In this document: positions 28,479-55,384 of the stretch, piece by piece
Position numbering within the stretch: position 1 is the first letter of the stretch
How the letters are laid out: the number at the start of each line of letters is the position of its first letter
Program-made: the position numbers and the translations under genes
DNA from: Botryllus schlosseri
Lineage: Eukaryota
Length of the DNA stretch: 64,000 nucleotides
NCBI GenBank assembly: GCA_051294905.1
Contig: CM119372.1
Coordinates: forward strand, 36,396,001 to 36,460,000
Direction: 5' to 3'
Notes under the pieces: model-generated
Told to the model about the DNA's origin: nothing
The model's input: the letters and a program-made list of their open reading frames with translations, nothing else
Databases searched by the model: none

Positions 28479-30025
28479 CAGGGGTGGGCAATTATTTTCG
28501 TCCGCGGGCCAAATGAGGAAAATAAATACGTTGGCGGGCCAAGTCAATAAATTTAGCTATATTCTTCAGCTTTGTTTCTAAATTACATTGTTAATAAATG
28601 CTGCTCGGTGAATGTATCGATATTAGGTAATGAGAAAGTGACGGTTAATTAAAAAATATCCACTAGCTGTCATGATTAGAAAATCTTTTAAACATGATAC
28701 ATTTTCGCTCTCTTTAAACCCCATATCCACGTTCTTCTATTGAGACTCTAAAACAGTGGTTCTCAAACATTTTTAGGCACGCCTCGCTTTATGATAGTGA
28801 GCAACTTCCCGCTCTCATAAAGTCGGCAGCTGAGACCCGAATACGGACGCATGCAAGAGAAAGAGTGAAAGAGTTAATGCGCTGATTGAAAGTCGCCCAA
28901 CGAGGAAGCATGATGTTGAAGATACTGACTCTACGATGATACTGAACTGTACCTATATGTGTGTCGTGACGCACAAGGCCTAAACGGCGATAAGCGTCAC
29001 TGTAATACCCGTGTAATAATAATAATAATAATAACTTCCCGCTAACTTATCAATTATCACAAAATATTAAAAAGTGTAACCAGAATGCTAGCAAACCTAA
29101 CAGATAGTTTGATGACATGGAAGATTATGGCTGTTGATGAGAGAATTGTGAAATATCAAAGTCGGACAATACTCAGAGCAACAACTATAATCTGGACGTA
29201 TATCACGCGGGGCGCGAAAAATTTTTTCACTAAACTTCGGCTTCGCGCCACCTTTCTGATGCTCTCACGTTTCCCAGTTCGAGATCCACACTACTGAAAT
29301 GTATATGCAATTGTACAAAGCTTATTTTCTTGGTTGCTGCCTTCCGAGCAATGTGCAGGTTAAATAGTCTTTATGTTGAGCGAAGCCTGCAGTTTTTCTG
29401 AACTTCGCCCTCGCTTGACCGAGTGTTTCGTGCTTTTGTCATAAGACTGACTTTAATTGAAATCCTTAATCTCGGCAACATGATCGGCAAAAACTGAAAG
29501 GATGGGTTTACCCCTGACTCCAGTATGCGAATATTTAGTGCTTTAAATTCTAAACCTAAACCTTATTTGAATTTCAGTTTTCGGTTTTTCTTGGCATGAC
29601 CGTTAATCCTTTATGGGTGATAGATATGACGTTGACGAGTCATATAATAATCGCGATTCGCGAGCACTAATCGACTTGTTTCACGAATTAGGGATTTGGA
29701 AACGTATCACGTCACAATTTGAGAAACACCGTATAATGCGTATTGTGACAATGTCAACAAGGAAGGTTTGCACTAAACTATATGGAGAGAGTGATTTCTT
29801 GCGACTTCAATTGCTACTCATACTTTGCCACGTTGCCTTTGTTTTGAATCTGGATTGCCGGCGTACTCGTGGCAATGAACAGGCTTCAGAGTAAACGAAT
29901 TTCCTGTTCATTTGATACAGCCTATGACTTTAGTCATTCAAAAAGCAAGTTTTATGTTTTGAATTCCAGCAACCTTTCGCGGGCCGCATAGAATAGCTTC
30001 GCGGGCCGCACTTTGCCCAGGTCTG
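28479..30025. mobile_element. hAT-type MITE with further nested repeats
   Basis: Ends CAGGGGTGGGCAA...TTGCCCAGGTCTG with subterminal GCGGGCC motifs. Perfect 8-bp TSD GTGTACAC at 28471-28478 and 30026-30033. It lies inside a TAGGGTTGCCATA-type MITE (about 28214-30117). Confidence 0.8.
28812..29033 (+). mobile_element. 5'-truncated SINE (same family as the split SINE) with TAA-repeat tail
   Basis: AAGTCGGCAGCTGAGACCCGAATACGGACGCATG...GTCGTGACGCACAAGGCCTAAACGGCGATAAGCGTCACTG...(TAA)n. Confidence 0.7.
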
Positions 30026-30778: not shown

Positions 30779-30889
30779 TGAATCCAAACATCAGTTCTTT
30801 GGTAATCACATGTGAGTAGACCTCAATGGTAGTGTTCGGGTGCACCTTTTTCTCCTCTTGAATCAATGCGGTCGTTCCGGTGATATGAT
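30779..30889 (-). CDS. Alkyl sulfatase exon 3
   Basis: Acceptor TTTGCAG|AT completes THFHT-D-H (HxHxDH Zn motif). Encodes DHITGTTAL...IEVYSHVITKELMFGF. Probable donor TTCA|GTAAAT at 30779/30778. Confidence 0.8.
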
Positions 30890-33800
30890 CTGCAAATATT
30901 CTACCTATCAGTTCAAGGCTGTGGAGAGGCAATCATTTTTTAAGAGTACTGGGGAACTTCATCCAGGGAACGCTCTAAAATCTGTCCATCCATCTAAAGG
31001 CAATTTCATCACTACCCTTTATACCAGAGGTCTCGAACACGTGGCCCGATGCGGTCCGCGTCGAAATTTCAGATTTCATAATATCCCGAAAGCTTTAATG
31101 GTGGCATGATGCATCTGTCTTCCCTGCACATAGGGTCATTTCATCGTTACTAGGCTACATTTCACAGACACACACACACCATTTCCGTAGCGAATTAAAT
31201 ACGGTATTACGCGATTCACGGATGAGGTAGGTTTGGTAAGAGCGACATCAATACTTATCTATTTATATTTATTGGCTTACCACGCCGCGAAATCCCAAAT
31301 AACAATGTTATGAAACGCCGGGGTGCATTTATTTTCGCGCCCCACGGGAGAAATTTTCGAAGTATTCAAACGATTTTCTTCAATATTACTGGTACCGCAC
31401 TCTTAACGAAAAGAGTGTGTATTTCCTCCCGTATATTACCCCTGATATACGGGTGTGGACAATGGACATACACCGATGACTCACGAGACCTGATCCTCTC
31501 AGACTTATGACGATTTATAAATCGAGTTCAACATTTTAATCCAAATTATGCATGCAAACAGGTACGCTCGAAGGTCTGCACGCAGTAGGGCGGGGCATGG
31601 ACTGGAGTCGGATTGGATATCTGGCCGGATTTTCTTATTTTCGGCCGGAGCTGGTTCGGAGCCGGACCAGTACATTTTACGAAGAATAGGATAACCTGAC
31701 CCTCTTCCACCATCTAATCAATAGATAAAGTGAAACGTGCATGGAAACAAACCCCATGCAAGTCCAAGTTGGCATAATTACTTCTACTTTGAATTGATCT
31801 TTGAGTTTTAAAATTTCCTTTTTTAAAATTTCTTTTCGAACAGGATCACGGTCATTTCTAGAATCCGCCCTAGGAGTCGGACCAGAGCTTTAAAAACAGA
31901 TTCTGAGTAGGACCAGAGAATTTGTCGATCCACTCAGCACTGGCACGTAGACACGATAGATTTAGGGGCGCGATATTATTTTGAGTTAGGCTCTGTTTTC
32001 ACGCACAACCCTTGGCCCTTTGGGTGTGAATGGACACTCGCTGCTACTTGGATATACGTGATCTGATATACCAGTAAAGCTATGGACGTCTGTCGCTACT
32101 CAATAAATTAGGAATCACAAGTCCATTCGAGTCCATTCTTTTTCTGTGCGGATGGCATTTGTACCGCAAGGCTCAGATTACAGAGACCGAAGTAATCATC
32201 TCCGGCAATTTCTGAGCCTGGGCATATTAACATTGAAAGCGCCAACCGAATTGTGCTGCTCATTTTCTGACAAGGTTTTATCGCTGTCAATCTATCTGGG
32301 AGACCACTTCGCTGGTACCTAGTCCGGCCCTACAGAAACGTGATCATCTCAAAGGCCATTTTTAAGGTTTGGTTTGAGTGACCGCTAAGTAGTTTTAAGA
32401 GACCGCTAGTGTTTCATTTAAATACCAAAAATAGCGATATTTGTATAATAGTCTATTCTAAATTTCTATCGCAAACTGTATATCGAGGGTCGCCAACCTT
32501 TTCGAAACCAAGAGCTACTTTTTGGGTACTGATTAATACGACGTGGTACCAGTTACTCCCGCCGTTTATCCGTGCTCAGTTGGATTCCTTTACTTGGACA
32601 TTCAGAGCACAGGGCAGGGTATCCGTCTCTTACCACGAACAGAAAACTCTCACTCACCGGGACTCACACCAGCTTCTCTGGGCCCAGCAGTTGCGTTGCC
32701 TCACTGCGCGACGAAGCGCCATTATCCGAGTCGAGACTCCGGAATATTAACCAGATTATTGTTAAGTAGGATTACCATATTTTGAAATCGGGAAAACATT
32801 TTTTCAAACTTTTTAAACTTAGGATACCGGAAGAAAATCTTGAAAAAATGGTAATTTCTTCCCAATTAGTGGTCGGTTGACTAAAAAAGGTCATCTTTCA
32901 CGCTCAGCGCCCGAAATACAGTTTTTCTTCCACATTTTCAGCTGGTTGACTAAAAAAAAGATTAACTTTCCGGCTCAGGTCCCGAAATAGCCGCCGGAGC
33001 GTTAGTCCAGTGCTGATTTACTGTATCTCGGTCAAATTTTGCCATATATTGAACAAAAATCGCAAAAAAGAGGACAAAATCTTAAAAAGGAGGACATCTA
33101 GGCATCCTCGGAGGACATTTTCAAAAACCAAAGAAAAGGAGACAAATCCTCCTAAAGCTAACCCTACCGTTAAGCATCCGCGTGGGCGAAGAGGAGCAAC
33201 GCCCCGATCGGAAACTGCGCTCCTATGTCGACTGACCCATATTAAACTGATCCTCATATGGAACCCTTCTCCGCTTCGACTTTCAAATCTCTCATTTTAA
33301 TATTTGCTACTGCGGCCGCGGGCTACTAATCTGGTCCTCGCGGGCTACCGGTAGCCCTCGGGCACCACGTTCGTGACCCCTGCTTTATATAATGCCAAAA
33401 ATATTCTCCCACCTAAGAGAAGCTTCGGTTAAGTTACTTCAAAACCAATTGCTAAAACTAAACGTCGTGTTGAGTAAATGCGTTTATGACATCATAAGCT
33501 TCATAATATTAGGATTAAGTCAGAGAGGAGTCCAGAAGGAATAGAATTAATTCGGATGTAGGTTTCGCAAGATACAAGAGTTATTACGTTATTTCTGATT
33601 TCTAAGGTTACTTTAGGACAAACGTTAATCTCTAAAGATACGGCACAAACCTAGGCATCTAAACTACGTATAATCAACGAACGTAAAATCATTTATTCGA
33701 CAAGGCACAGCGATTGTGAAAGTGACCAAACAGCGTGTCCAACAAGGCCGCCAGACATGTTTGCCGCACAATCACAAAAAGTGTGCTTGTTGGCTTCTGC

Positions 33801-34541
33801 TTGTTATGTTTCCACATGTAAAAATCGATCATTAGGCGCCATAACCAGAAATAAACATTGACGAGAATCAAAGGCCCACGTTTTTGTGAACAACTCTTTA
33901 ATTCAGCTGTTAGCTGTACCTCCATTTATTCTTTTTCCGGACGTGAACAATTGATCGTAGGCTATTTTCGTATTATCGACAAGACATAGCAAGAAACAAC
34001 TATACGTCTACTGTAGTTGCAAGTCCAAATTCTGAGAGAGCGCTGGAGAAATTTTGGGACCTTTTCGGTCCTCCAAAATACCTTTAAAACACTGTCAAAG
34101 GCCACAGGCGTTCCTGCGAACATTGAACATACCGTTCTCTCACAATTGCGAATACAGTCAGACTCAAGTGTAAATTCTGCTTATTCGTTTTCGGGAGGTG
34201 GTACCCACATCGAAACCAAGAAAACCCAGCGACCTTAAATCACGCGTGGTGCGAAGAAAAATATCAAGTTGAATACATCTGTAATAAGATTCTGTTAATT
34301 TTTGTGAGGTTCAGACAACTTTCGAAATTTCTGGCGTCCCTTTCCCTCTCTCCCTACTACAGCATCCGCAACCCATTGGTATTGCAGCGGTGGAACATAA
34401 TAGCACTGCGCCAATTGCGCCTAGATTATGTAGTCAAAACGACATTACGCGGAAAATATCACGAAATATCGGGAACTATAGTTTAGTCAGATTGGAGCAA
34501 ATTTTAAACTCACAAGGAAATCAGATTTCTAGAGCGTTTAC

Positions 34542-34667
34542 CTGTATGGAAGTGAGTGAATACAATTGCAACCACTGGTTTCATCGTTATTTTGCGGAAT
34601 TCCACCATTATGCTCTTCATGCTCTCCCCACTTTCCGTTGTGTCGACGATGATCACTCCATCATCGC
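34542..34667 (-). CDS. Alkyl sulfatase exon 2
   Basis: Acceptor TTCGTAG|GC after a 73-nt intron (34668-34740). Encodes GDDGVIIVDTTES...KPVVAIVFTHFHT. Donor ACAG|GTAAAC at 34542/34541. Confidence 0.9.
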
Positions 34668-34740
34668 CTACGAATGTAAAAAGAATGATAGCCCGATTCA
34701 ACCAGAATCAAATTCACACTTTACACAGTTTCATACAAAC

Positions 34741-35025
34741 CTTCGATCATGATGCTGTTGGCCAACGCCCATCCTATAGCGACGTAGATATTGTCATCGA
34801 CTTTGACGACTTCCTTCGTGAGAAACTCCCTCTTGGTGTATTCGACCAATTTCTTCGATGATTCGGTGACGTCGCTCGATTTGGATAACGGCTCGGTGAT
34901 GTAGTCGAATCCTGTATCCTTATCCCCATGATGCCATCCACCTTTGCCTACCATCACCGAGACATACCCCAAACGGTCACAACAGCCGTTGTTAAACCTA
35001 TCGTGAGATACGTTGTCTTTTGCAT
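34741..35025 (-). CDS. Alkyl sulfatase (SdsA1/YjcS/BDS1-like, MBL fold), exon 1
   Basis: Encodes ...EVVKVDDNIYVAIGWALANSIMIEG, the typical start of the MBL domain of this family. Donor GAAG|GTTTGT at 34741/34740. ATG at 35025 gives a hydrophobic leader (MQKTTYLTIGLTTAVVTV) but needs +1 nt at 34971-34973 to join the frame. An alternative in-frame ATG lies at 34954. Confidence 0.75.
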
Positions 35026-38000
35026 TATTGCTTTTATTAGAATAACCTCGAAGACTTAATGCTATACCCTGTATATCGGGTGAACTATGATCATAATGCG
35101 TGAGCGGCGCATACTTATATAATATTCAGTAGCTCCATGTATTTGTATTAAATATATTGACTCTGTTCATCAACTCAGTCTGTCGTCATGGTCACACGGG
35201 AAATACAATAATACACATGTCAAATTGATGGGGTGAAGATAATGAAATTTATACGTTTGTGAGCGCAATGAAGTTTTTTCCAGAAAAGAAATATGGGTGT
35301 GTGTCCCGTGTCGATAACCTGCAACAATCCATCTCGCTTTCATGAACAATGAACATCAATATGGGAGGGGGGGATGTTAACGACCATGCGCAATTGAGTG
35401 TATTGCGATCGCGACATACGATATTCTGCACGCGTCTGCCGAATTGCAAATGCAACGTGCCTTCAACAAACCGAAAGTCAAATTATTTATGATAATTATA
35501 ACTGGTGCATATTCACATAATCCGGGAGCCCAAAAGAAAATGGCGAGATTGATGTAAACTTTGAAAATTTCACTAACCAAGTCAAATTGTTATTCATATG
35601 CAATACATCAACAAAGAAATGCGGTAGATGAAGAATCGACACGGGTTGCAGAGGTGTAGATAATTGAAAATGAAGAATCGAAATTACAGAAATCATGCTG
35701 CGATTTTCGAGTACAAGTGTAATTCATTATTAATATTACTGTTATTGTTACGGGAGGTCAAGAGCCCCACTCAACTAATACATATGATTTATGGTATGAT
35801 ACGCCCTTCTTGGCCGTCATTGGTTGTAGTTAATTAGGCCTGATCACTAGTCGAATTGACACTGTTGTTGTACGCAATCGAAACCCCGTCCATCTGAAAT
35901 GCCAATTCTGTCTGCAGTATACTATTTGTAATCTCACATAGATACGCAATTGCGATCGCGCTGTTACGTCTCGACCGAACAATACGATAAGACATTCCTA
36001 GGTGAAGCCTCGCATTTCTGAACAGTAGGAGTCATTGATTTGCGATTAAGTATCATTACTTTTTTGTGCTGAGTGAAAACTATATTTCAGTGATTTGTTC
36101 TTTTGATATCCGGTTGATGCACAGCTCATTTCATGATCCAGTATTATCTTGTAATGTATTGAATCTGTGAGTATAGGTATTAGGTGGTTGATTTTTTTAT
36201 TTTATGATTCAACGAAAATTTGGGGTTCCGCGAAGGCATGTAGAATTGTAGATTAGCATAAGTGTTGTGCAGATGGATAATGGTCAAGAGCCACTGTTTT
36301 ATGGTGTGTCAAGTTCAATTGAAGAAGATATGTCTCAATAGGTTTCAAGCACTTGTATCCAGCTATATGCGAAAATATATGCTCGTTAGCAACAAGTGGC
36401 TGGCTGGATGCATTTCAACAGTATTTTCCGACAGATGTGAAAAATGAACATCAATTCGGAAAATGTTAACAAGGCACCGTTTAGCATCCGATGTGTACTA
36501 TTGCACCGTGACTAATGGGTATAATCCTAAAATATAGCTACGCGTCTGCCGCATTGTGGAGCTTGCCAACGTTTAAAGCTAAGCTTAGGCTACTCGAGTG
36601 CATGCGGAATTAAAAAATAGTTTGCGGAGATCGACCAAGCAATCTGTAGGATGGAATAACGTTTTGGTATAACATCATATATCATGCGACACATCGGCAC
36701 ACCTGAGCATGTGGGTTAAATTACAGGTTAAGAGTGGGTTAGGGTTGAATTTAGGCCTGGGTTAGGGCAATGCTTGGGGTTAGGATATATAGCGGTTAAT
36801 TTCAGGGTGATGTTTCGGGTTAGGGTTAGTTTTGGGCTCATAAAGTTACATGCTGAAGGGACGCATGCTAAAATGTCCCATGGTCAACTGTCGTTTTCCA
36901 TTGTGTCGCATGCTCAAATTGCTCATATGTCGGCAACCCATTTCAGTTTCTTCCCTCATTCTGATTTGGTGACGGGTGTACGTATATTGTACAACTAAGA
37001 ACTAGCCTACTTGTCTCCAAACTCGTGTTGTAGCATTTTGTATGCTGAAAGTACGCGGAAGCACTCTACTAACTGTTATCATGATCGAAATCAGACCAAA
37101 CAGCAAATACTATTACATAACATTTTTTTGGCAAATTTGGAGTGACAGAGAAACATATATGGGCTCAGTAAGATGGCTGATGCCAGTATTGTTGGCTATT
37201 TATTATGTCTAGTTTAAAATTCCAAATGCCCATAAAATATCGTTACGGCGACGGTGAGTCGCGTAAGGCACGAAGATAAATTTCCAAGTTGAATAAATTT
37301 GCTACCAAGTACTCAGTTTTATGTTTATTTACAATGTATTATCAAGACTCCTATTAAATGAAGTGACGGGGGGAATATCGCGAACTGCGCACAGGAAACT
37401 GATTGATGAATGTTTGAAGAATGTCAAATATTGTGAAAAGTAACTAATAGCAATAGTATAGTATGAGTGAAGTTGTACAATATTAATGAGATGTATTTCC
37501 ATGCATATTTGTAATCGAAATTGCTTAATCGAAGTAACGACACACGAGGAACTGTCTATGTATGTAATCTGTATAGGCTACTGTGAACGTGGTCCGATAG
37601 CGCGATTCATTCGTGGGACTACAATAATATGTTACCAACTGCCCATAGTCACAAATAAAGTGGCGTAGCCTACATGTAATGTAACTTCCGGAACATGAGT
37701 GGATGCTAGGAATGTGTATTTGGATATCTAGTACTTCGCATTTACAGACGGAGGACGAAAAACAGTAAACAAAATGCTCTTTTATAATTTGAAGACAAGT
37801 GCTACCGTTAGTAAAAATAGCTCTTATGAGTCAATATTATCCGTTTACAACACACTCTTACTTGGGTCTATAAACTTGGAATTGAAGAGGATAAATCGTA
37901 AACGAATATCTTATGCAATTTCAATTCTTGAGCACCGACTTACATGATAAAATCGTCGAAGGTGGGTCGTGAAACTTTCGACTTTACGAGCACCATCACG

Positions 38001-38114: not shown

Positions 38115-38950
38115 CGGGGGTGTCAAACTCAAATTGCGTCGCGGGCCGGGTTCAAGCCTTCAAATCGCTCGCGGGCCGGACCAGTCAACTGATTCCAAAA
38201 TGTTTCCTCGTGCTCTTGCTTTTCACTTGAATACCTTGAAAGCATATATAGATGGTACGCGGATCATAGGATTTTAAAGTATAGCAAGTCGCAAAACCTC
38301 TATTCGCGAACAATGGAATTGGCAAAAATACGATGATGGTCAGTTGAATACAGTTAAGAACTGCTGAAACAGTGGCGTTAACGAAGATATAAGTTGCCAT
38401 ATCCTATGCTCCCTTTGATTTAGTCGTGGTCTGGCATTAGCCCTGCGTATGGGTTGCGAGGAATACAACAAATTTAATTGAAAACGCGGACGTTGGAGTT
38501 TGGTTTATTATTAATAAACCGCGAGTTCGGTTTCTCTCAAGTCTGGGGATATATTGGGTCGAAATTGACACAGCGGTGCGACCATAAATCTTTTAATTAT
38601 ATATTTATGCAACCAATCTATTCTCCCTGTCCACGACGGTTCCGCATTGGCGTTTTCGCTTCTGTGAATAACTACCTTCTTGGTCCATATTTGTATCAAA
38701 CTACGGACTTGGTGTGCACTTTTTGCCTTCTTGAAATTGGATGTTGATTTCACCGACTTGTTATTATGTAACTAGAGTGAAACCACAGCGATGTAGTCGG
38801 GAAATGGGATTATGAACATGGAAGTATTTCCTGCAAAATATCTCAACATTTGTTACAAATGTGCTGGAAAATATATAAAAATAATTCAATCTACTCAGAA
38901 TTGCATCGCGGGCCGGATGCGGCCAGCTGGCCGTATGTTTGACACCCCTG
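38115..38950. mobile_element. hAT-type MITE
   Basis: CGGGGGTGTCAAAC...GTTTGACACCCCTG with GCGGGCCG subterminal motifs. Flanks GGGTTAAC / GGTTAAAC. Confidence 0.65.
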
Positions 38951-39354
38951 GGTTAAACAGTGGTCTTTAGCTATATATATGTTTAAATGCTTTCCGTAAA
39001 AATTCAACCCCTATTGAAGCGAGGCTCGCGAAACGTTTTCGTTGGGCCCGTGACAGCCTGGTGAAAATGTTTACCTTTTTTAAGCCAACATCTAAGCTAA
39101 CATGAAAAACATACGAAATTCATCGTATCCATCGCAAGCGAACTTGGTGATTTATTTTTCGTCAGCAGCTACCCGAACGGTACAAACACGGCAGATTTAG
39201 CGCAATGTTTCCAAAACGGAAAGTGGCGTCCTAATTCCTTTTGATTTAGTTGTTTTCTAACCAGTGTTAAATAATTGATACGGAAGTAGCCCGCGATGCT
39301 TTACCAAAGTGTAATGCGGTCCGCATTCGACATAGTTTGGGCACATCTAAATAT

Positions 39355-39526
39355 TGTATTGTATTAATCGGCACGACACAGTGGAGCTTATCGCCTTTCA
39401 AGGCCTTGTGCTCCACGACATGAATTTCATAAAGTTCATTGGTCTTTTGCTTTTTGTCTTGTTGGGAACGTCTTTTTCATTCTCTCTCGCAGTCATCATC
39501 ATTGTCTCTCGCTCCCATGCGTCCCC
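39355..39526 (-). mobile_element. tRNA-derived SINE, 3' half
   Basis: Minus strand: GGGGACGCATG...TGTCGTGGAGCACAAGGCCTTGAAAGGCGATAAGCTCCACTG...TAATACAATACA. Colinear with the uninterrupted SINE tail at about 28812-29033. Bounded by CACATCTAAATAT at 39342-39354, the partner of the 13-bp TSD. Confidence 0.8.
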
Positions 39527-40069
39527 ATCGTGAGTAGTATAGTAGATCGCTCGCATGACGCGCTTTTTTGCATGGGGTAGTATAGGGCCCGCTCACACGG
39601 TGCCTCGAAACTCGTATTGGTGACCCCACCCTTTTGACCCCCCCTTCCGCTGGTGACCTGCCATGCGTTCTTATGGGATCTCTGGTGACCCCACCCTTTC
39701 AGGTATAGGGCTCGCTCATGACCTGCCGTGAAAACTCGTGTTGGTGACTCCACCCTTTTCGAGTCCCTATCGCTGATGACCTGCCGTATCGTCGGTGATA
39801 CCACTCTTTCAGGTATACGTTGTGTCGATGACCTGTCTGATAACGTTACGGGTATAGGGATCTCTGGTGAAGTGGTGTTGAATATCAAGTATAGTAAACA
39901 GTGACGCCATTACTTAGTATGTATATTCAAAAATATTATATATGACCGATTTGAGTTATTCCCAACGTTTACGGCGAGCGCGACTTTAATATATCTTTAT
40001 TCTTATGGCCGCGGTGGCATGTCGTACTCTCAGGTATAGGCTGCGTTGACATGTCGTAATTTCAGTAAA

Positions 40070-40720
40070 AAGGTGTGAAATAGTTGGTTAAATCTAGGAA
40101 TCAGCCGCATGGTAATGTTTTGGTAATTAGTTTGCCACAGAGCCGGCGTAGACGGCGATTCGAATACCAACAATATCCGCGTTCACATAGTAACACTTCA
40201 AAAAGTTGTGAAATATTTGTAAAATCCTACGAGCGCTCACAAGATAACACGTCAGACATAGCCATCTCTCGCGGTTTGATGTTACAGAGGTAGGAATCAC
40301 GCACAAGTAATATTTTGTCACAGAACCGGCGTAGACGGGGATTCCAATACCAGCAATAGCCGCGTTCACAAACTAACACTTCAAAAAGGCGTGAAATAGG
40401 TTGCAAATCCCGCGATCGCTGACAAGATAACACCTCAGACATAGCGATCACTTGTGACTTGCTGTTACATACATTCCAATCGCCACAATGTAATATTTTG
40501 ATAATCAGTATGTCACAGAACTGGATTTCACTGGTAAAATTGAATAACTAACAAATAACAGAACCGTCGCAGACGGTGATTCGAATACCGACAAATTCTC
40601 ACTTATTTCTGACCCAACCCTAATCCTCTGTGAAGTTGACGCTTATTCAAAAAGGTGTGAAATAATTGTAAAATCCTACGTCGGTGACGCGATAATGCAT
40701 CAGACATAGCGATCTAGGTA
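40070..40720. repeat. About 183-bp diverged repeats in the left arm (mirror at about 51700-52350)
   Basis: CAGA(G/A)CCG(G/T)CG(T/C)AGACGG...ATACC at about 40138, 40321 and 40559. CAGACATAGC recurs three times. Confidence 0.75.
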
Positions 40721-43700
40721 TAGTACGGTGTCGGAATCCATTCGCGAGATGTTCTATAGGTATATTGAGGTAATCCGAAACGAAATATTTTGACTTGGCG
40801 TAGTGTGGGTTGAAATAGGATTGACAAACATGACTACCATCTTTCCAAGTGCCATTTCGAAATTATACGCACATTGATTTGAAACAAATAATGAAACATT
40901 ACAACTCTATTCACGATCCGTCTTTCCGTTTGTCAAAGAGACATTTTAACACCTTACCATACTCAAAAGAATTATTCACAACAATACCCGATGTTAAAAA
41001 TATAGTTTTAACTTCCTTGATTATATCACTACAACTCGCAAACTTGAATTAATTCATCCTGGTTGTATTCATATGACCGATAATTTTTATTCAACTGTAA
41101 AGGTCGTTACTATTCTGTAAGACAAAGTATTTACTAATCGGTGCATATACGACTTGACATAAACCTATTTCATTTTGAGTATACGAGATTTGAATGTCTG
41201 AACAATAAACTGAGAATTAAATTATCACAAGTGAATCCGTATATTACAGCGTAAAAGATATTGGAATGTCAGCAACTCTGTACGGTCATAGTTACTACCA
41301 CATTACCTAATTTACCCGGCCAACTCGTCATGATCATCCCTGAAATCAACACAACATGACCACTGACTTGAGTTAACCCAAAACATCATAAAGTTTTAAA
41401 TCCACTTGTAGCTTACGTATTATTTGAATGCGGGTTATGTTTTATTGCAATCGAGTTAACGGAAATAGTATTAAGGCTCGACATTTTAACATTTTACCAT
41501 ACTCAGTCAATCAGGAAAACCTTGTCAAGTAAATCCGTTTGTAACTTACCCGACCAACTCAAACAGTATCAGTATGAAAAACAGCCAAGCATACACGAGT
41601 CCATACAATCACTAAAACCTAAAATCCATAACAAGTTCGGTTTTACTCATATCCCTACGACGCGTCTTTTTTCAACTTTAAAAGTCGTTACTATTCTGTA
41701 AGATAGAGGAATTACTACGCGGTATATTCTGCAAGACAAAGTTATTATTACTCGATATATTTTGTAAGACAAAAGTAATTTCCACTCGGTGCAGGCGACT
41801 TGAGATTAACATAATATGTTTGAGTATACGAGATTTGAAAGTCTGATCAACGTATAGTTGCGACTTCATTTCTTACAATCGAACGCTGCTGTTATATCGA
41901 AAGTTACCATTCTGTAAACATAAGGATTGATACATTGATGTGCCATATGTAATAGTTGATCATGACTTGATTATTAAATTATTCGTTTTAATTAGACCCG
42001 GCGTTGTGGTAAAGGTTATTATGACAACAACAATCTTTTCAGTACCGTTGTTATTAACATATCGAGTTGTAAAACTATGCGTGTCTGAAATGTTCATGAT
42101 TGAAGAAATTATTCCACCTTGGTACATATCACTCTGCGTATCGCGGATATCAGAAAATATTTTACAAATGTAATTGTTTCCAGTACCCAAACTAAAGATG
42201 AAACAACAATTTCGTTTGCTGATTAACAACCGGTGCAATACTTTATTGTCGGAATCTGCGACATCGAATTGAAACATACGCACATCACACAGTACGAAAA
42301 TATCACTTTGGGCTCCGGAGCGGTGTCATTTAATCTGTGTTAAACTCTGTTCACACTCTCTGTCGAAAATGCGTGAAATGTAAAACCATTAAGAGGTCAC
42401 ACTCTAAGACTTTGATCATCAAAAAAGTAAATAGAGGTATCTTTACTGGATCGATTCTATTCAACTGGTCTTGGTTAATACAAAAAAAACCATAACAATA
42501 ATATCGAAGTATGTGCTACACTGAAATCTACAAAAATGTGTTTGTATTGCTGCGATATCGATTTGAACCTCCAGAATAATTGTCATCATGTAACCAAACT
42601 AAGGAAAGTCGTTGTCAATTTGTATGATGTTCACTGATTGCATACTAGAACTATTTGTGCAACGCACACGATCAAAGAAATTGGAAATTTTCCCATTGCC
42701 ATTCGTCACAATATTCGGTCACTAAAATACGTTACTTGGATGTGATTGAATCGCTGGTAGTTAACTCGATAAATCAAACCCCTAAGAAATTTCACTCACT
42801 CATTAGATATTAAACAGTGTCGCCTAATCGGCGTGGGTCGCTTTTTATAAATACAAATCATACCTGGCCAACAGAAAACAATTTTCACTAGCTTGGTAAT
42901 GAAACCGAAGTCTCCATTCGATATTTTGTTTGTGTCAAATACTTTACAATGAACACATTTGCGTGGTTGAGCTTTACATCATCAAGCTGTTATTTGTAAA
43001 TCAAGATTTCGGGAAACTTGTAAATGTATCGTTTAACTAACCGACATTTAGTGATTGGGGAACATACCAAACGATACACATCCATCTCCGAAATACTGCA
43101 TTGATCTTCATTTCCATCATCGTGATAAGCGAAGTACATTTGTTTTGAATTCATAACAATAGGCTTTTCTATGACATGATAAATTATTGACAAGTTCTGC
43201 TTAGAAGATTGGTTGCATATCACGAAAAATAATATACCACACATATTATTACTGTTACTCCATTCATCGGTATTTTTTCCGTTGTCGATTTTCAAACGAG
43301 TAAAATTTATTACTTGAGTCGCTCTGCTTACTATATTTAAATGTAAACTCCCCCCGTCTTTCAACAACAAACAATGTTAAAAAAGTATGCAATCAAACAC
43401 AGCAAGTTTTACGATACTAATTATTTTCCCACATAACCCATTTCTTACCGAAGACATATGAAATATATTCATGTTACACGAAAATATTCGCTCATGCTAC
43501 AAACCTATACAATGATTGGTGGTGCTTTCAAACTGTTTCGATACCTCAAGAACTTTATTGTCTGAATGGTTGTTCATGTATCGTAATAATCAAGTAGTTC
43601 AACACAGAACTAGTATTAACAGAAACACCAGAGTTGTTTACACAAAAGTTTGTATGTGTACAGTATACGGATACCATGTGTAAGACCAGCACAATTGTGG

Positions 43701-44589
43701 TATCCATACGAGTTTAGTTAACACAATTTACGACACCGAGGTCGCGTCATCTTTCGTAAGACAACAAACCAAGGCTTCAGGATATGTCCATGTCATAGCA
43801 ATAAATCAGCTACTCCAACAACAGAGTGCATATGTTTTCTAGTTACGGTGCTTACATCTTACACACAAATCAATCTACTTTGCTAACGAAAAGTGGTGAG
43901 TCGTCATATGGTTGTCCTCACTAGTAAAACATACTATCATACAAAATGGTCGTTATAGTTTGCACACCAACGGTATATCGTACAAGTAACAAGTCTCGAG
44001 AATCCAGTTATTCAAAAAACGTGAAAGTATTTCTACACCAAGTCGTTATGTTGACGAAAGCGTATATTGTAATATCATGATCGATTTGCATTCGTTGGTC
44101 ACAAACTGTCACTACTCTAAATAATTCTTTTTCGCTCAAACACAAACGCATACTTGTCACCATTCGTTTTCATCAAGCTCGAGTTCAAGAAACTTCTTAC
44201 TACGACATGAATTTTTATTTTTATGTTGTGTAAATAGCTAATAATTAATTCAAGTAACACTATATCAACATCATCGAGTTGTGCTAATAGATTTACATGT
44301 GGTCTTGTGGTTTTCGTCGGGACATACAGCACGAACTAACTGTAGACTCCTCTCTGTTGTACAGCTACTCGGTAATCGAAATGCATTAACATGTAAACAA
44401 CGATCTTGTTTCGTCACACCAAAAATATGTTCACTGTCGCGATACTCCGCACAAGACGTACATAGCCTTTTCACACTCGTAATAGTATACCAACGTCAAG
44501 CGATAACGTTTAACAAGACCAACGACACTGAACCCACGACGTTTACCTATGTAAAATTACCACTTTCACTTGCCAGTCCATCGTTTACC

Positions 44590-45125
44590 TGACTAAACAT
44601 ATTATTTTCCTTTGGAGATCTGACGTTTACCCAGAGTAAGAAACCATTTTCACTTGTAAATATTTTTTTTCCTCGGCTAACAAACCTTTTTTCACTTGGA
44701 AATATATATTTTCTCTGGTTAACAAACCTTTTTCACTTGGAAATATATTTTTTCTCTGGTTAACAAACCTTTTTCACTTGGAAATATATTTTTTCTCTGG
44801 GCAACAAACCTTTTTCACTTGGAAATATATTTTTTCCCCGGGTAACAAACCTTTTTACCTGAGCAACAAACCATTTTCACTTGGTGGTCCGTCGTTTATC
44901 TGAGTAAAAATATCATTTTCCTTTGGAGATCCGGCGTTTACCCAGTGTAACAATACATTTTCACTTGAAAAAAATACTTTTACCTAGAGTAACTAATCAT
45001 TTTCTCCTGGGTAACAAACCCTTTTCGTCTGGAAACTATCATTTAACTGAGTACCAATACCGTTTTCACTTGGAAATACATTTTTTCCCTGGGTAACAAT
45101 ACCATTTTCGTTTGGAAAACGGACA
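44590..45125. repeat. About 41-42-bp minisatellite inside the left arm (mirror at about 47295-47830)
   Basis: Repeating AACAAACCTTTTTCACTTGGAAATATATTTTTTCTCTGGT units. Confidence 0.85.
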
Positions 45126-46191
45126 ACCACACCGGACAATTTGATATTTTTGTATATTGTTACAACGGACAGCGACAAAATATACACCAACAACGACTGC
45201 AATACATTTGTGTAATAGCTTATTCACTTGTTCTGGTGCATCCCATCGAAATCCTCAGTTACCCGCATGCAATGTGCTGTTGTACATCGACGTGTATGTT
45301 TTGGAAATTGGACAATAGGTTTCGACATGTCTGCGATGTCCGGGTTCGTGCTTTGGATTTTCCAGAGTCAAAATGTCTGAATAAAACACCTCCTCGACTT
45401 CGGTAAATGTTTGGCACGCAGATAACGACGGTCGGACATCGACGAATTTATGTTTCCATCGGGCTAACAACTCCGGGTTACTTGTGATTTATCTCACACG
45501 TGTTTACTATGTTGTGTCGCTCTTTATTGATCAATACATACCACACCATTCAGTTTGAAATCGGAAACCCCGAGAAATCGTTAACCGGATCCGGATATCA
45601 ACTCTAAATCGATAAACCACATGCCACACCCCGTGTTTCCATGAAAATTACAAGACATCGCAAAAATCAAGTATACTTCGCTATTATTTGCCCGCACAAG
45701 TAATCACTTAAAGGATGTGTATGACATTACATACATCATGGATAACATCGTGTCTAGCATTACAAACATCATGGGCGACAAATTCGTCTTCTCAAGTCCC
45801 GTCATGCGCAGACTCTGTACATTCAGTGTGGGTATAGATGACTTGGAGATAAACAAACAGACATCTTTGACCGTAACATGGCCTTAGCACGAGAATTCTT
45901 TACACGGGTGCAACGTCGCAGTCAGACATCTTTAACAGTGATTCCGCGTATGGAAATCTTAAATTCGATTGCAGTTTTTGTAATCCGAGTTACTGGGTTT
46001 CTGTGGTGTGAAGACTAAATTCGTGTTGATCCCCGCTGTAAGAGTGTGATGTCCATTTCACACCTAGAGCAATTATAAAACGCATCTTCGAAACTTTTGA
46101 TCTATTTCATCCGCTTGCATTTCGAAACGGATCAGCACCACAAGGCAATTGAAAAAACTTTGTCGTTACCTGATTATATACACGAGTAAGG

Positions 46192-46467
46192 ATGGGACTA
46201 CGCGTAACTTTCCATAGATTCCTCTGGCCTCACACCGTTGTTTTACGACACAGACAAGACGCAGCGGTGGAAATATTGAAAATGAAAAACGATACCTTGG
46301 TTACATTTGATTTGGATTTTACACCTGATGAACCATACACTCGATTGGTGCATTGGGATGACGACTCTATCGTCGAGGTTGAGGGGAAAGAAATGTACAG
46401 ATTTGTTGGTGTCGTGGATATTCAACGAAAATCGGGGTACATGATAGTACATGGTTCGCATATATGA
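46192..46467 (+). CDS. Putative small (91 aa) protein of unknown function in the palindrome spacer
   Basis: True ATG...TGA ORF with globular-looking composition, preceded by TATA-like TTATAAAA (about 46073) and TTATATA (about 46174). It lies wholly in the unique spacer. No homology recognised. Confidence 0.35.
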   Translation: MGLRVTFHRFLWPHTVVLRHRQDAAVEILKMKNDTLVTFDLDFTPDEPYTRLVHWDDDSIVEVEGKEMYRFVGVVDIQRKSGYMIVHGSHI

Positions 46468-49400
46468 CTATGAATGTATCGGTATGCATAATGCTCTGTT
46501 CACTGTATCGATATCACCGATGGTATTTGAACGAATAACCATGTTACGGTCAAAGATGTCTGTTTGTCTATCTCCAAGTCATCTATACCCACACTGAATG
46601 TACAGAGTCTGCGCATGACGGGACTTGAGAAGACGAATTTGTCGCCCATGATGTTTGTAATGCTAGACACGATGTTATCCATGATGTATGTAATGTCATA
46701 CACATCCTTTAAGTGATTACTTGTGCGGGCAAATAATAGCGAAGTATACTTGATTTTTGCGATGTCTTGTAATTTTCATGGAAACACGGGGTGTGGCATG
46801 TGGTTTATCGATTCAGAGTTGATATCCGGATCCGGTTAACGATTTCTCGGGGTTTCCGATTTCAAACTGAATGGTGTGGTATGTATTGATCAATAAAGAG
46901 CGACACAACATAGTAAACACGTGTGAGATAAATCACAAGTAACCCGGAGTTGTTAGCCCGATGGAAACATAAATTCGTCGATGTCCGACCGTCGTTATCT
47001 GCGTGCCAAACATTTACCGAAGTCGAGGAGGTGTTTTATTCAGACATTTTGACTCTGGAAAATCCAAAGCACGAACCCGGACATCGCAGACATGTCGAAA
47101 CCTATTGTCCAATTTCCAAAACATACACGTCGATGTACAACAGCACATTGCAAGCGGGTAACTGAGGATTTCGATGGGATGCACCAGAACAAGTGAATAA
47201 GCTATTACACAAATGTATTGCAGTCGTTGTTGGTGTATATTTTGTCGCTGTCCGTTGTAACAATATACAAAAATATCAAATTGTCCGGTGTGGTTGTCCG
47301 TTTTCCAAACGAAAATGGTATTGTTACCCAGGGAAAAAATGTATTTCCAAGTGAAAACGGTATTGGTACTCAGTTAAATGATAGTTTCCAGACGAAAAGG
47401 GTTTGTTACCCAGGAGAAAATGATTAGTTACTCTAGGTAAAAGTATTTTTTTCAAGTGAAAATGTATTGTTACACTGGGTAAACGCCGGATCTCCAAAGG
47501 AAAATGATATTTTTACTCAGATAAACGACGGACCACCAAGTGAAAATGGTTTGTTGCTCAGGTAAAAAGGTTTGTTACCCGGGGAAAAAATATATTTCCA
47601 AGTGAAAAAGGTTTGTTGCCCAGAGAAAAAATATATTTCCAAGTGAAAAAGGTTTGTTAACCAGAGAAAAAATATATTTCCAAGTGAAAAAGGTTTGTTA
47701 ACCAGAGAAAATATATATTTCCAAGTGAAAAAAGGTTTGTTAGCCGAGGAAAAAAAATATTTACAAGTGAAAATGGTTTCTTACTCTGGGTAAACGTCAG
47801 ATCTCCAAAGGAAAATAATATGTTTAGTCAGGTAAACGATGGACTGGCAAGTGAAAGTGGTAATTTTACATAGGTAAACGTCGTGGGTTCAGTGTCGTTG
47901 GTCTTGTTAAACGTTATCGCTTGACGTTGGTATACTATTACGAGTGTGAAAAGGCTATGTACGTCTTGTGCGGAGTATCGCGACAGTGAACATATTTTTG
48001 GTGTGACGAAACAAGATCGTTGTTTACATGTTAATGCATTTCGATTACCGAGTAGCTGTACAACAGAGAGGAGTCTACAGTTAGTTCGTGCTGTATGTCC
48101 CGACGAAAACCACAAGACCACATGTAAATCTATTAGCACAACTCGATGATGTTGATATATTGTTACTTGAATTAATTATTACCTATTTACACAACATAAA
48201 AATAAAAATTCATGTCGTAGTAAGAAGTTTCTTGAACTCGAGCTTGATGAAAACGAATGGTGACAAGTATGCGTTTGTGTTTGAGCGAAAAAGAATTATT
48301 TAGAGTAGTGACAGTTTGTGACCAACGAATGCAAATCGATCATGATATTACAATATACGCTTTCGTCAACATAACGACTTGGTGTAGAAATACTTTCACG
48401 TTTTTTGAATAACTGGATTCTCGAGACTTGTTACTTGTACGATATACCGTTGGTGTGCAAACTATAACGACCATTTTGTATGATAGTATGTTTTACTAGT
48501 GAGGACAACCATATGACGACTCACCACTTTTCGTTAGCAAAGTAGATTGATTTGTGTGTAAGATGTAAGCACCGTAACTAGAAAACATATGCACTCTGTT
48601 GTTGGAGTAGCTGATTTATTGCTATGACATGGACATATCCTGAAGCCTTGGTTTGTTGTCTTACGAAAGATGACGCGACCTCGGTGTCGTAAATTGTGTT
48701 AACTAAACTCGTATGGATACCACAATTGTGCTGGTCTTACACATGGTATCCGTATACTGTACACATACAAACTTTTGTGTAAACAACTCTGGTGTTTCTG
48801 TTAATACTAGTTCTGTGTTGAACTACTTGATTATTACGATACATGAACAACCATTCAGACAATAAAGTTCTTGAGGTATCGAAACAGTTTGAAAGCACCA
48901 CCAATCATTGTATAGGTTTGTAGCATGAGCGAATATTTTCGTGTAACATGAATATATTTCATATGTCTTCGGTAAGAAATGGGTTATGTGGGAAAATAAT
49001 TAGTATCGTAAAACTTGCTGTGTTTGATTGCATACTTTTTTAACATTGTTTGTTGTTGAAAGACGGGGGGAGTTTACATTTAAATATAGTAAGCAGAGCG
49101 ACTCAAGTAATAAATTTTACTCGTTTGAAAATCGACAACGGAAAAAATACCGATGAATGGAGTAACAGTAATAATATGTGTGGTATATTATTTTTCGTGA
49201 TATGCAACCAATCTTCTAAGCAGAACTTGTCAATAATTTATCATGTCATAGAAAAGCCTATTGTTATGAATTCAAAACAAATGTACTTCGCTTATCACGA
49301 TGATGGAAATGAAGATCAATGCAGTATTTCGGAGATGGATGTGTATCGTTTGGTATGTTCCCCAATCACTAAATGTCGGTTAGTTAAACGATACATTTAC

Positions 49401-52400
49401 AAGTTTCCCGAAATCTTGATTTACAAATAACAGCTTGATGATGTAAAGCTCAACCACGCAAATGTGTTCATTGTAAAGTATTTGACACAAACAAAATATC
49501 GAATGGAGACTTCGGTTTCATTACCAAGCTAGTGAAAATTGTTTTCTGTTGGCCAGGTATGATTTGTATTTATAAAAAGCGACCCACGCCGATTATGCGA
49601 CACTGTTTAATATCTAATGAGTGAGTGAAATTTCTTAGGGGTTTGATTTATCGAGTTAACTACCAGCGATTCAATCACATCCAAGTAACGTATTTTAGTG
49701 ACCGAATATTGTGACGAATGGCAATGGGAAAATTTCCAATTTCTTTGATCGTGTGCGTTGCACAAATAGTTCTAGTATGCAATCAGTGAACATCATACAA
49801 ATTGACAACGACTTTCCTTAGTTTGGTTACATGATGACAATTATTCTGGAGGTTCAAATCGATATCGCAGCAATACAAACACATTTTTGTAGATTTCAGT
49901 GTAGCACATACTTCGATATTATTGTTATGGTTTTTTTTGTATTAACCAAGACCAGTTGAATAGAATCGATCCAGTAAAGATACCTCTATTTACTTTTTTG
50001 ATGATCAAAGTCTTAGAGTGTGACCTCTTAATGGTTTTACATTTCACGCATTTTCGACAGAGAGTGTGAACAGAGTTTAACACAGATTAAATGACACCGC
50101 TCCGGAGCCCAAAGTGATATTTTCGTACTGTGTGATGTGCGTATGTTTCAATTCGATGTCGCAGATTCCGACAATAAAGTATTGCACCGGTTGTTAATCA
50201 GCAAACGAAATTGTTGTTTCATCTTTAGTTTGGGTACTGGAAACAATTACATTTGTAAAATATTTTCTGATATCCGCGATACGCAGAGTGATATGTACCA
50301 AGGTGGAATAATTTCTTCAATCATGAACATTTCAGACACGCATAGTTTTACAACTCGATATGTTAATAACAACGGTACTGAAAAGATTGTTGTTGTCATA
50401 ATAACCTTTACCACAACGCCGGGTCTAATTAAAACGAATAATTTAATAATCAAGTCATGATCAACTATTACATATGGCACATCAATGTATCAATCCTTAT
50501 GTTTACAGAATGGTAACTTTCGATATAACAGCAGCGTTCGATTGTAAGAAATGAAGTCGCAACTATACGTTGATCAGACTTTCAAATCTCGTATACTCAA
50601 ACATATTATGTTAATCTCAAGTCGCCTGCACCGAGTGGAAATTACTTTTGTCTTACAAAATATATCGAGTAATAATAACTTTGTCTTGCAGAATATACCG
50701 CGTAGTAATTCCTCTATCTTACAGAATAGTAACGACTTTTAAAGTTGAAAAAAAGACGCGTCGTAGGGATATGAGTAAAACCGAACTTGTTATGGATTTT
50801 AGGTTTTAGTGATTGTATGGACTCGTGTATGCTTGGCTGTTTTTCATACTGATACTGTTTGAGTTGGTCGGGTAAGTTACAAACGGATTTACTTGACAAG
50901 GTTTTCCTGATTGACTGAGTATGGTAAAATGTTAAAATGTCGAGCCTTAATACTATTTCCGTTAACTCGATTGCAATAAAACATAACCCGCATTCAAATA
51001 ATACGTAAGCTACAAGTGGATTTAAAACTTTATGATGTTTTGGGTTAACTCAAGTCAGTGGTCATGTTGTGTTGATTTCAGGGATGATCATGACGAGTTG
51101 GCCGGGTAAATTAGGTAATGTGGTAGTAACTATGACCGTACAGAGTTGCTGACATTCCAATATCTTTTACGCTGTAATATACGGATTCACTTGTGATAAT
51201 TTAATTCTCAGTTTATTGTTCAGACATTCAAATCTCGTATACTCAAAATGAAATAGGTTTATGTCAAGTCGTATATGCACCGATTAGTAAATACTTTGTC
51301 TTACAGAATAGTAACGACCTTTACAGTTGAATAAAAATTATCGGTCATATGAATACAACCAGGATGAATTAATTCAAGTTTGCGAGTTGTAGTGATATAA
51401 TCAAGGAAGTTAAAACTATATTTTTAACATCGGGTATTGTTGTGAATAATTCTTTTGAGTATGGTAAGGTGTTAAAATGTCTCTTTGACAAACGGAAAGA
51501 CGGATCGTGAATAGAGTTGTAATGTTTCATTATTTGTTTCAAATCAATGTGCGTATAATTTCGAAATGGCACTTGGAAAGATGGTAGTCATGTTTGTCAA
51601 TCCTATTTCAACCCACACTACGCCAAGTCAAAATATTTCGTTTCGGATTACCTCAATATACCTATAGAACATCTCGCGAATGGATTCCGACACCGTACTA
51701 TACCTAGATCGCTATGTCTGATGCATTATCGCGTCACCGACGTAGGATTTTACAATTATTTCACACCTTTTTGAATAAGCGTCAACTTCACAGAGGATTA
51801 GGGTTGGGTCAGAAATAAGTGAGAATTTGTCGGTATTCGAATCACCGTCTGCGACGGTTCTGTTATTTGTTAGTTATTCAATTTTACCAGTGAAATCCAG
51901 TTCTGTGACATACTGATTATCAAAATATTACATTGTGGCGATTGGAATGTATGTAACAGCAAGTCACAAGTGATCGCTATGTCTGAGGTGTTATCTTGTC
52001 AGCGATCGCGGGATTTGCAACCTATTTCACGCCTTTTTGAAGTGTTAGTTTGTGAACGCGGCTATTGCTGGTATTGGAATCCCCGTCTACGCCGGTTCTG
52101 TGACAAAATATTACTTGTGCGTGATTCCTACCTCTGTAACATCAAACCGCGAGAGATGGCTATGTCTGACGTGTTATCTTGTGAGCGCTCGTAGGATTTT
52201 ACAAATATTTCACAACTTTTTGAAGTGTTACTATGTGAACGCGGATATTGTTGGTATTCGAATCGCCGTCTACGCCGGCTCTGTGGCAAACTAATTACCA
52301 AAACATTACCATGCGGCTGATTCCTAGATTTAACCAACTATTTCACACCTTTTTACTGAAATTACGACATGTCAACGCAGCCTATACCTGAGAGTACGAC

Positions 52401-52894
52401 ATGCCACCGCGGCCATAAGAATAAAGATATATTAAAGTCGCGCTCGCCGTAAACGTTGGGAATAACTCAAATCGGTCATATATAATATTTTTGAATATAC
52501 ATACTAAGTAATGGCGTCACTGTTTACTATACTTGATATTCAACACCACTTCACCAGAGATCCCTATACCCGTAACGTTATCAGACAGGTCATCGACACA
52601 ACGTATACCTGAAAGAGTGGTATCACCGACGATACGGCAGGTCATCAGCGATAGGGACTCGAAAAGGGTGGAGTCACCAACACGAGTTTTCACGGCAGGT
52701 CATGAGCGAGCCCTATACCTGAAAGGGTGGGGTCACCAGAGATCCCATAAGAACGCATGGCAGGTCACCAGCGGAAGGGGGGGTCAAAAGGGTGGGGTCA
52801 CCAATACGAGTTTCGAGGCACCGTGTGAGCGGGCCCTATACTACCCCATGCAAAAAAGCGCGTCATGCGAGCGATCTACTATACTACTATCGTG

Positions 52895-53072
52895 GTCTCT
52901 GCTGCCGACTTATAGCGCGGCTCACTTTCAGTCTGGGCTTTTCAATGCACTACCGTAGTAGTGAGGTCGGCGATGAGGAGCCCAGATAAACCTCCGACAC
53001 GTAGACGTTGGTCAGAACCGGGATTCGAACCAGCGTCCATTGGTGTCGTGACTACAGTGTTTAACCAACTGA
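52895..53072 (-). mobile_element. tRNA-derived SINE, 5' half (split by the palindromic element)
   Basis: Minus strand: TCAGTTGGTTAAAC (A-box remnant)...GGTTCGAATCCC (B-box)...GTCGGAGGTTTATCTGGGCTCCTC core...AAGTCGGCAGCAGAGAC. Bounded by CACATCTAAATAT at 53073-53085. Confidence 0.8.
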
Positions 53073-55384
53073 CACATCTAAATATGAGTGGGCATACATT
53101 GCTCACTGCTCAGTCAACAAATGGTTTGCGTTAAAAAGTCACCGGGCAACTTTTTATGGTGGAAATCTAAGCTCAAATATTTGCCAAAGGGGTCCACGAG
53201 ACGAAAACGATTGGAAACCACTGCTAAAATTAAGAAAGCAAGAGGTACATAATCGCGCGAAGTGCTAAAACAAGCAAGTGAAATCAATCTGCCGTAAAAT
53301 ACTCTACTTCATGACAATTTACATCGGTTTTATCACGTATGAGGCGCGTGGCCACTTTCGCTGACCCCGGCTACGCCTATGCGTCGAAACTTGCATTTTT
53401 AGTCAAGAACCTCGTAAATTTGGCTGTTAGGCTGATTAAAGCTCTAGTCGACCTAGCAAGTTCACAATAAATTACGAAGGCAATCTAATTTTTGATGATA
53501 TAACTAATTTTGAGAATTATCTGACGGGGCACTCAAAACCTACTCGCGGGCCGCGGGTTGGCCACCATGCTGTAAATTTATGATTGTAAAATTCGGGTAG
53601 GCTATGTATTAGTTTTCCATGATAGCATTCATATTAGGCCATAGGCACTTTCTGGTACAAACTGATGCTTTCACGACCATTACAATCTATGAAAGAGAGT
53701 AAAATCCGCATAGAGATATATTTTAGGGGTGCGGTGAGCTCTGCTTACCATTTTAATGCGCCTTCTCATGGTGATACACGACAACAGAACTCACTATACA
53801 AATAGAATATATCCCCATAAGGATTGGTGTATTTAGCTTTCTTCTATCCATCGGTTTGGCGTGGAATGTGGACACATCTGATTCAACTATAGCTCCCTCA
53901 GGCCTGGTGCACAAGACCCTAGGAGTCGAGCACCATAAAAACCCCTATATATACATACAATATCATAAAGTCACAATGGCCTGATATGCACCTTACACCT
54001 TACGTTATGGTTGAAATCGGCGAAATACAATATTTGCCTATGCAATGTACTCAATAATATATTGGTCATACGACTAAGCTTTCTACTTTGGATTTTCTGC
54101 AATAGGCAGTAGTTTTGGGATGTGGTTGTATCAGTGAAAACAACCTGTATCTCGGAAACTGAATATATTTTCGGAAATCACCCATTTGCAATACAATGAG
54201 TTATTTCGCTAATGACGTGAATGAGACACCGCCTGCATTTTCCAAAGTAACCGAATCTGATATACCGCTAAAGGACGCGGGTATTCTACTAAATCTAGGG
54301 ACATACTGTTTCATGCGGTCCTGCAAATGGGGCTCCTTTCTTCCCACGTAACCGCAATCGCATCGGCACTCCTTTGTTTTGTTGAAATACAAGAAGAACG
54401 TTCTTGCGTGTTGCATGGTTGTCGTGAAAAATGACGTTGGTGTTCACTCGATTATCCTACTTACTGACCGCAGAAACAACCAAAGTCACCGGAAATAGGA
54501 TGACTCCATTGTAAATACCTATGGTTATTCATTTCGCAGACACTTATGACTCTTTTGCGTCGAATTACGTTAATTTACTCTCGATAGCTCGGTTGGAGCA
54601 AAAAGTATGCGATCACGAAGCGTCCAAGTTACGGCATACGGAACAATATTACAAACGCGGGCTCAGGATCTCGTCTCCTCGCGAATGCCGCCTGCTCACA
54701 ACATCAACGATGTACAACTGGGATGTTAGACATGCGGGCCGCATCCGGCTGGCAAGATGATTTCGTGCGCCCGCGAAGCAATTCTGAGAATATTGAAAAT
54801 GCTTTTATTATCCTGCACATTTCCAGCAAATATTGAGATATTTAGTACGAAATATTTCCATTAAATAAACCTCCGAGACAGAAAATGTCGAGTATGTTCA
54901 TAATCCAATATAACCGCTTGACTACGGTGTTATGGTTTCACTATAGGAACCAATAGGAACAAGTCGTTGACATTGACTCCAAATTTGGAGAAGGCAAAAA
55001 CGTCTACACTCAGTTAAATGTCGATAATTCCTCACAAAACACCCGGAGGAGTAACTTCATATTACGACTGAAACAAATGGAGCATAAAAATATGCGAGGG
55101 CCGCTAGTATTACAGTATTTACTATTTATCGTTTTCCAAGTCAAATCGCAAAATACATTCAAAATTCAGCAATTCGAGTCAAAGTCATAACAAGCGATGA
55201 TGACTTGATGATCGATTTTAATCAACAGCTACCCGATCGGGAAAAATAATTGCCAAATGTAACGCAATGATTCCACAAGGGAAAGCGACACTGAATCTTT
55301 TCGATTTATGATTTTCTAGACAACAGAATAAATTGATACAGAAGTTGCCTGCAGTACCTTGCCAAAGTGCAATATGGTACGCAT

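Follow-up and report, generated by a model that had tools for sequence, protein, structure and literature searches.

The stretch of DNA analysed here, referred to as the window, comprises 64,000 nucleotides of the Botryllus schlosseri genome (assembly GCA_051294905.1, contig CM119372.1, positions 36,396,001 to 36,460,000 of the forward strand), and all coordinates are counted from its first letter. Its central feature is a short interspersed nuclear element (SINE) that is split into two halves by a giant palindrome, which consists of two long inverted arms around a unique loop containing an open reading frame (ORF). Both the SINE and the palindrome are flanked by direct repeats of their own, one pair nested within the other. 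Because of these nested duplications, a structure that is usually dismissed as a fold-back artefact is accepted here as a bona fide insertion, and we consider this almost certain. The features of the locus are, in their order along the window:

39342..39354, plus strand: left copy of the 13-bp target-site duplication of the SINE
39355..39532, minus strand: SINE, 3' half, with a length of 178 bp that includes the left hexamer, and a short simple-repeat tail beside the 13-mer
39527..39532, plus strand: left copy of the 6-bp target-site duplication ATCGTG
39533..45881, plus strand: left arm, 6349 bp, starting with AGTAGT, non-coding as far as tested
45882..46538, no strand: loop, unique sequence, 657 bp
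46192..46467, plus strand: loop ORF, 91 amino acids, conserved in relatives
46539..52888, minus strand: right arm, 6350 bp, ending with ACTACT
52889..52894, plus strand: right copy of the 6-bp target-site duplication ATCGTG
52895..53072, minus strand: SINE, 5' half (178 bp); a B-box-like motif lies at 53021-53031
53073..53085, plus strand: right copy of the 13-bp target-site duplication of the SINE

Architecture of the palindrome and its insertion site

The palindromic element spans positions 39533-52888 with a total of 13,356 bp, of which 95% is palindromic in a self-comparison. The inverted arms (39533-45881 and 46539-52888) are 99.89% identical over 6,350 alignment columns with 6 substitutions and one insertion or deletion, a figure that the assembler could inflate and of which the nested duplications alone are no proof. 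Within the left arm, internal sub-repeats with units of about 123, 183, 33 and 41 bp are found. The symmetry of the arms continues for 0 bases beyond 39533 and 52888 and for 0 bases within the loop. When compared in inverted orientation, the outer 1-kb flanks are 26% alike. The two ATCGTG copies are direct repeats and abut both ends of the palindrome. The observed/expected ratio of CpG is higher in the arm (1.23) and the loop (1.30), both taken from 39533-46538, than in the flanks (1.05).

The 13-mer occurs twice in the window when both strands are checked, at 39342-39354 and 53073-53085, and is the sole exact direct repeat of at least 10 bp between the segments 39000-39532 and 52889-53500; the probability of such a match by chance is about 1e-5, allowing for 21x21 offsets. 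The in-silico excision of 39533-52894 leaves 178 and 178 bp, i.e., a SINE of 356 bp on the minus strand between the two 13-mers. A preliminary description of this DNA, made from the sequence alone, had proposed this rejoining together with the 13-bp repeat around the SINE, and both are confirmed, the repeat as unique in the window and the rejoining, at the level of the SINE family, also by the sequencing reads described below. The SINE halves on either side of the palindrome are equal in length when one hexamer is counted, which is probably due to chance.

Because of the nesting geometry, the SINE must be placed first and the palindrome second. This order, likewise proposed earlier, is further supported by reads and contigs of the SINE family that carry a single hexamer.

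The split SINE and its relative in the window

The target-site duplication, the simple-repeat tail, dispersed copies and the lack of an ORF identify the split sequence as a SINE. A B-box-like motif, judged by the general consensus, lies on the minus strand at 53021-53031 in the 5' half, and the head of the SINE is presumably clipped by about 10 nt relative to the transfer RNA (tRNA) consensus. However, neither ARAGORN nor Rfam, at the gathering threshold or at an E-value of 10, detected a tRNA in the SINE, and for this reason the label "tRNA-derived" is regarded as likely from the motif rather than shown. The fold of the SINE head is not significant (z -1.73).

For comparison, a further copy outside the locus was used:

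28814-29032 (28803..29043 with its duplications), plus strand: SINE relative, 5'-truncated

This relative is flanked by its own 11-bp duplication (28803-28813 and 29033-29043) and ends in a (TAA)n tail. Over the whole match it reaches a score of 84, as opposed to a best score of 39 among 300 shuffled sequences, and it is 63% alike to the split SINE overall. Its middle differs from that of the split copy, which hints at modular subfamilies. The preliminary description had based the colinearity of the rejoined junction on this copy, at about 28818-28852. The alignment is indeed gap-free with 28 of 34 letters identical, but it starts at 28820, agrees with the hexamer in 3 of 6 letters and discriminates weakly between a junction with one hexamer and a junction with two (scores of 44 vs 42), making the relative by itself a weak witness.

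The junction and the element family in public reads and contigs

A stronger witness is provided by public sequencing data, in which parts of the stretch are contained in 20 of the 24 listed runs, from 11 studies, with no RNA run among the runs listed as containing them. Four of the 24 were aligned, on the region 38200-46538. Run X1 possibly represents the source sample, while X2 and X11 are derived from other samples and studies, X11 being labelled as another organism. In the RNA run X23, 516 reads have loose ends after position 39532, and the consensus of these ends agrees in 29 of 30 letters with 52895-52924, the other half of the SINE, as opposed to 11 of 30 letters with the start of the element. 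Since these reads cross into the other SINE half, members of the SINE family are colinear across the junction and have a single hexamer there, which is the result that the preliminary description had asked for as a check on the rebuilt empty site. Contigs from X2 and X11 align to 39352-39532 and end at both positions, and therefore mark the junction as well as the 3' border of the SINE at the 13-mer. No loose ends were found at 39533 among the 24 rows listed, with 2,971 further rows existing. The junction-crossing SINE records differ from the locus at about 12 positions and depart from it at 39352, so they are taken as paralogous copies of the SINE, which is the most likely assignment. In X23, the SINE family is plentiful on both strands, with depths of 195 and 216 in 39312-39589, and on the arms and the loop the depth is 0-7 compared to about 200 in the SINE bin (one run, 6% read).

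The element itself belongs to a multi-copy family, whose arms recur in the three contig sets X1, X2 and X11. The numbers of aligned records amount to 127,555, 12,225 and 1,794, respectively, covering all 30 bins, and most of these records are 90-99% alike to the stretch. The summed depth, which cannot be converted to a copy number, is far greater over the outer and middle parts of the arm than over the inner arm and the loop, and this suggests subfamilies that share the arms yet differ near the loop. In X11, one contig terminates exactly at 45881 and another overhangs 46538 by 30 letters, a pattern as would be expected from a graph fork at the borders between arm and loop.

Arm symmetry and family variation

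The differences between the left arm and the family were taken from the 40 best-supported rows among 380 variant rows, of which 33 lie in the arm, 4 in the loop and 3 in the flank, and 32 of the 33 arm differences listed are also present in the right arm with the same letter. At strong sites, where at least 95% of the summed depth reads otherwise in X1 and X2, the change is common to both arms in 14 of 15 cases. The exception at position 44238 is one of the seven differences between the arms, with the family letter in the right arm, as expected for a change in one arm after insertion. Because the lineage-specific changes occupy both arms and a late change is confined to one, homogenisation of the arms appears to proceed at a much higher rate than divergence within the family.

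Coding content and the loop ORF

The longest stop-free frame in the arm and loop encodes 128 amino acids. Among the 57 frames of at least 50 amino acids, none of the 48 submitted to the Pfam scan passed the cut-off, with one weak match at an E-value of 0.024, and neither the ORF search nor the Pfam scan revealed frames for a polymerase, integrase, ATPase, protease or capsid protein in the element. For the arm frame at 42993-43376 (minus strand) no homologue was found in a search among longer proteins only, and for that at 41963-42325 (minus strand) none in a search among proteins of similar length only. The arm and loop contain seven frames of 100 codons or more, which exceeds the number in shuffled sequences, and these were considered as decayed genes; this was rejected, as chunks of host DNA of the same size contain 3 to 8.

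The ORF in the loop has relatives, which form three clusters of 91 amino acids each with 96, 78 and 70% identity; the cluster members comprise six sequences, one of which has 98 amino acids. The four loop variants among the selected rows are all synonymous third-position changes (4/4), whereas 21% of single changes would be expected to be so (p ~0.002), and the ORF thus appears to be under purifying selection. Among 1.84 billion representatives no relative beyond its own cluster was detected, the best PHROGs match has an E-value of 0.076, and no locus was found in viral contigs. Atlas scores of 0.82 for the loop ORF and 0.75 in the arm-frame tests are leads only, and the structure model of the protein is unusable with a mean predicted local distance difference test (pLDDT) value of 33.9. 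When viral and metagenome contigs were searched with the terminal patterns of 25 and 21 letters, the number of matches was 0, and the arm and loop had no match among phage records.

Other features of the window

The window consists of animal-type DNA and contains a long interspersed nuclear element (LINE)-like reverse transcriptase as well as a fragmented alkyl-sulfatase-like gene. The following features lie outside the split SINE:

3680-4693, plus strand: hydrophobic frame of 337 amino acids, no Pfam match, on visual inspection a membrane protein with several passes
19188-22307: LINE-like endonuclease/reverse transcriptase frame with in-frame stops inside
24086-35125, minus strand: pieces of an alkyl-sulfatase-like gene, of which a piece of 415 amino acids matches Alkyl_sulf_dimr and Alkyl_sulf_C
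25569-28208: second foldback-type element, 2.6 kb, arms 81-90% alike, ends TAGGG//CCCTA

The 2.6-kb element at 25569-28208 is flanked by an 8-bp direct repeat (25561-25568 and 28209-28216), and in its general features it looks hAT-like.

Proposed origin of the palindrome

The explanation that we consider probable is a SINE insertion followed by that of a palindromic, Maverick-dependent satellite whose arms would be reset by replication. The first two steps are directly visible at the locus: the 356-bp SINE was retroposed at the site, leaving the 13-bp duplication, and the 13,356-bp element, 95% of it inverted repeat, then entered the middle of the SINE, leaving the 6-bp duplication. In the third step, the element would behave as a non-autonomous satellite of Mavericks, also called Polintons, borrowing the polymerase and integrase from a putative autonomous helper, while the retained (AGT)2//(ACT)2 ends would serve protein-primed replication and integration. 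We infer movement by helper enzymes because the ends and the duplication are of the Maverick type and the element has no enzymes of its own, and this dependence is judged very probable from the sequence features. The preliminary description had called the insertion "integrase-type", which the 6-bp duplication and the end motif would likewise suggest. In the fourth step, for which the chances are about even, the displaced single strand would fold back on itself to give a stem of 6.35 kb closed by a 657-nt loop, as an extreme case of the proposed racket intermediate, so that each round of copying could rebuild or correct one arm from the other and copies would insert with identical arms. The seven arm differences would then postdate the insertion, and the loop would be the only place for a single-copy gene. 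Its ORF product might be a small accessory protein for replication or packaging of the element, a guess based on its conservation. As a whole, the coupling of arm symmetry to replication is considered evenly balanced.

Several points weigh against this proposal. Among the records aligned in the four runs, an orthologous empty allele was not seen and no record spans the whole element. The variant counts come from the best-supported tenth or so of the rows, as given above. Pan-handle replication alone copies the arms unchanged, and the symmetry would require an additional, hypothetical repair or snap-back step. Lastly, no link of the arm or loop to any virus was found in viral and metagenome contigs, phage records, PHROGs or the 1.84 billion representatives.

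The main rival for the arm symmetry is host gene conversion, according to which a non-autonomous element with Maverick ends was homogenised in its arms after insertion, as in the palindromes of sex chromosomes. Private variants common to both arms fit this explanation equally well, and a 657-bp loop between 6-kb arms would favour intrachromatid pairing. However, both target-site duplications, of 6 bp and 13 bp, are perfect, which suggests that the insertion is young and that there was little time to fix 14 or more private changes in the two arms. In addition, the one-arm change at 44238 is uncorrected, and overall we regard this course of events as unlikely. It is still less probable that the element is a foldback-type non-autonomous DNA transposon, mobilised by a cut-and-paste transposase that makes 6-bp duplications, with coincidentally Maverick-like ends. 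Long arms with internal sub-repeats recall foldback elements, the 2.6-kb element with its 8-bp duplication lies in the same window and no viral homology was found, but the exact (AGT)2//(ACT)2 ends, the 6-bp duplication and the 13-kb length jointly match Mavericks. Finally, a fold-back read or one arm written twice by the assembly would be in keeping with arms of 99.89% identity and the lack of a spanning record, but is very improbable. The preliminary description had argued that a sequencing fold-back would not produce two independent, nested duplications with different outer flanks. A fold-back would also mirror the flank, whereas the symmetry ends exactly at the AGTAGT end motif and the flanks are the differing halves of one SINE. 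The loop is unique, one of the seven arm differences resolves to the family letter, and the arms and loop are present in X2 and X11 from other samples and studies. A collapse in the assembly could inflate the identity, yet it presupposes that the real arms closely resemble each other.

If the proposed satellite is accepted, a family in which the arms return to identity and afterwards diverge would allow a direct population-genomic test of the racket model, and insertions could be dated by the divergence between their arms, as is done with pairs of long terminal repeats. Tentatively, such elements could form a class of their own, heritable hairpin satellites of animal polintoviruses, which would be copied through a whole-length fold-back intermediate that restores arm symmetry in every round, carry one small selected gene in the loop and integrate through a helper integrase; every genomic copy would then be a dated fossil of the racket intermediate, which has never been observed. 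The nesting in a SINE is ordinary in itself, but it provides good proof of the reality of an unusual element. Screens for core genes would miss such elements, as would inverted-repeat screens with an upper limit of 2,500 bp for the repeats and a large loop (PMC11131425).

Comparison with known systems

The split SINE and the element were compared with four known systems. The split SINE resembles tRNA-derived SINEs in its length of about 360 bp, its B-box-like motif, simple-repeat tail, target duplications of variable length and many copies, but its head is not recognised by ARAGORN or Rfam as a tRNA and its family is not assigned to a named SINE. Foldback transposons possess long inverted arms with internal sub-repeats and little or no coding sequence, all of which is also true of the palindromic element. 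In contrast to them, its ends and 6-bp duplication are of the Maverick type, and its arms are far longer and nearly identical. Drosophila FB and its kin are named among the foldback DNA transposons in PMC6431247.

Copy-back and snap-back defective viral genomes contain one end twice, in inverted orientation, around a small loop or none, and depend on a helper (PMC13506859); the element shares the first property and would share the second. These genomes are described there mainly for RNA viruses and as transient products, whereas the element is chromosomal, heritable, multi-copy, diverged into apparent subfamilies and equipped with a conserved loop ORF.

Mavericks are the closest match. Their ends are (AGT)2//(ACT)2 or (AG)3//(CT)3, and vertebrate Mavericks have the former together with a 6-bp target duplication (PMC8097293); the element has the same ends, the same length of duplication and a total length within their range of 12.7-24.6 kb. 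However, its repeats of 6,349/6,350 bp exceed the 46-1,447 bp of the vertebrate elements (PMC8097293) and are four times the longest reported, Maverick inverted repeats generally having 100-1,500 bp, and it lacks core-gene frames and is 95% its own mirror image. Surveys of nematodes (10.1101/2023.08.22.554363) and an element from the anole (PMC3014272) were included in this comparison. Because of the absence of core genes and the length of its repeats, the element is, by its sequence, not an autonomous Maverick and resembles a dependent of one.

For Polinton replication, a racket-shaped single strand has been modelled by inference from sequences (PMC4196379; 10.64898/2026.07.28.741278), a pan-handle replication intermediate is described for adenovirus (PMC9863843), and the terminal palindromes in the Halocafeteria preprint have 52 nt only. 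Whole-element palindromic Mavericks were not described in the full-text literature searched, which contains few subscription papers and no supplements and does not extend to Repbase, where a prior entry is possible. While Mavericks themselves are known, the whole-element palindromic form of a Maverick-type element would be what is new here.

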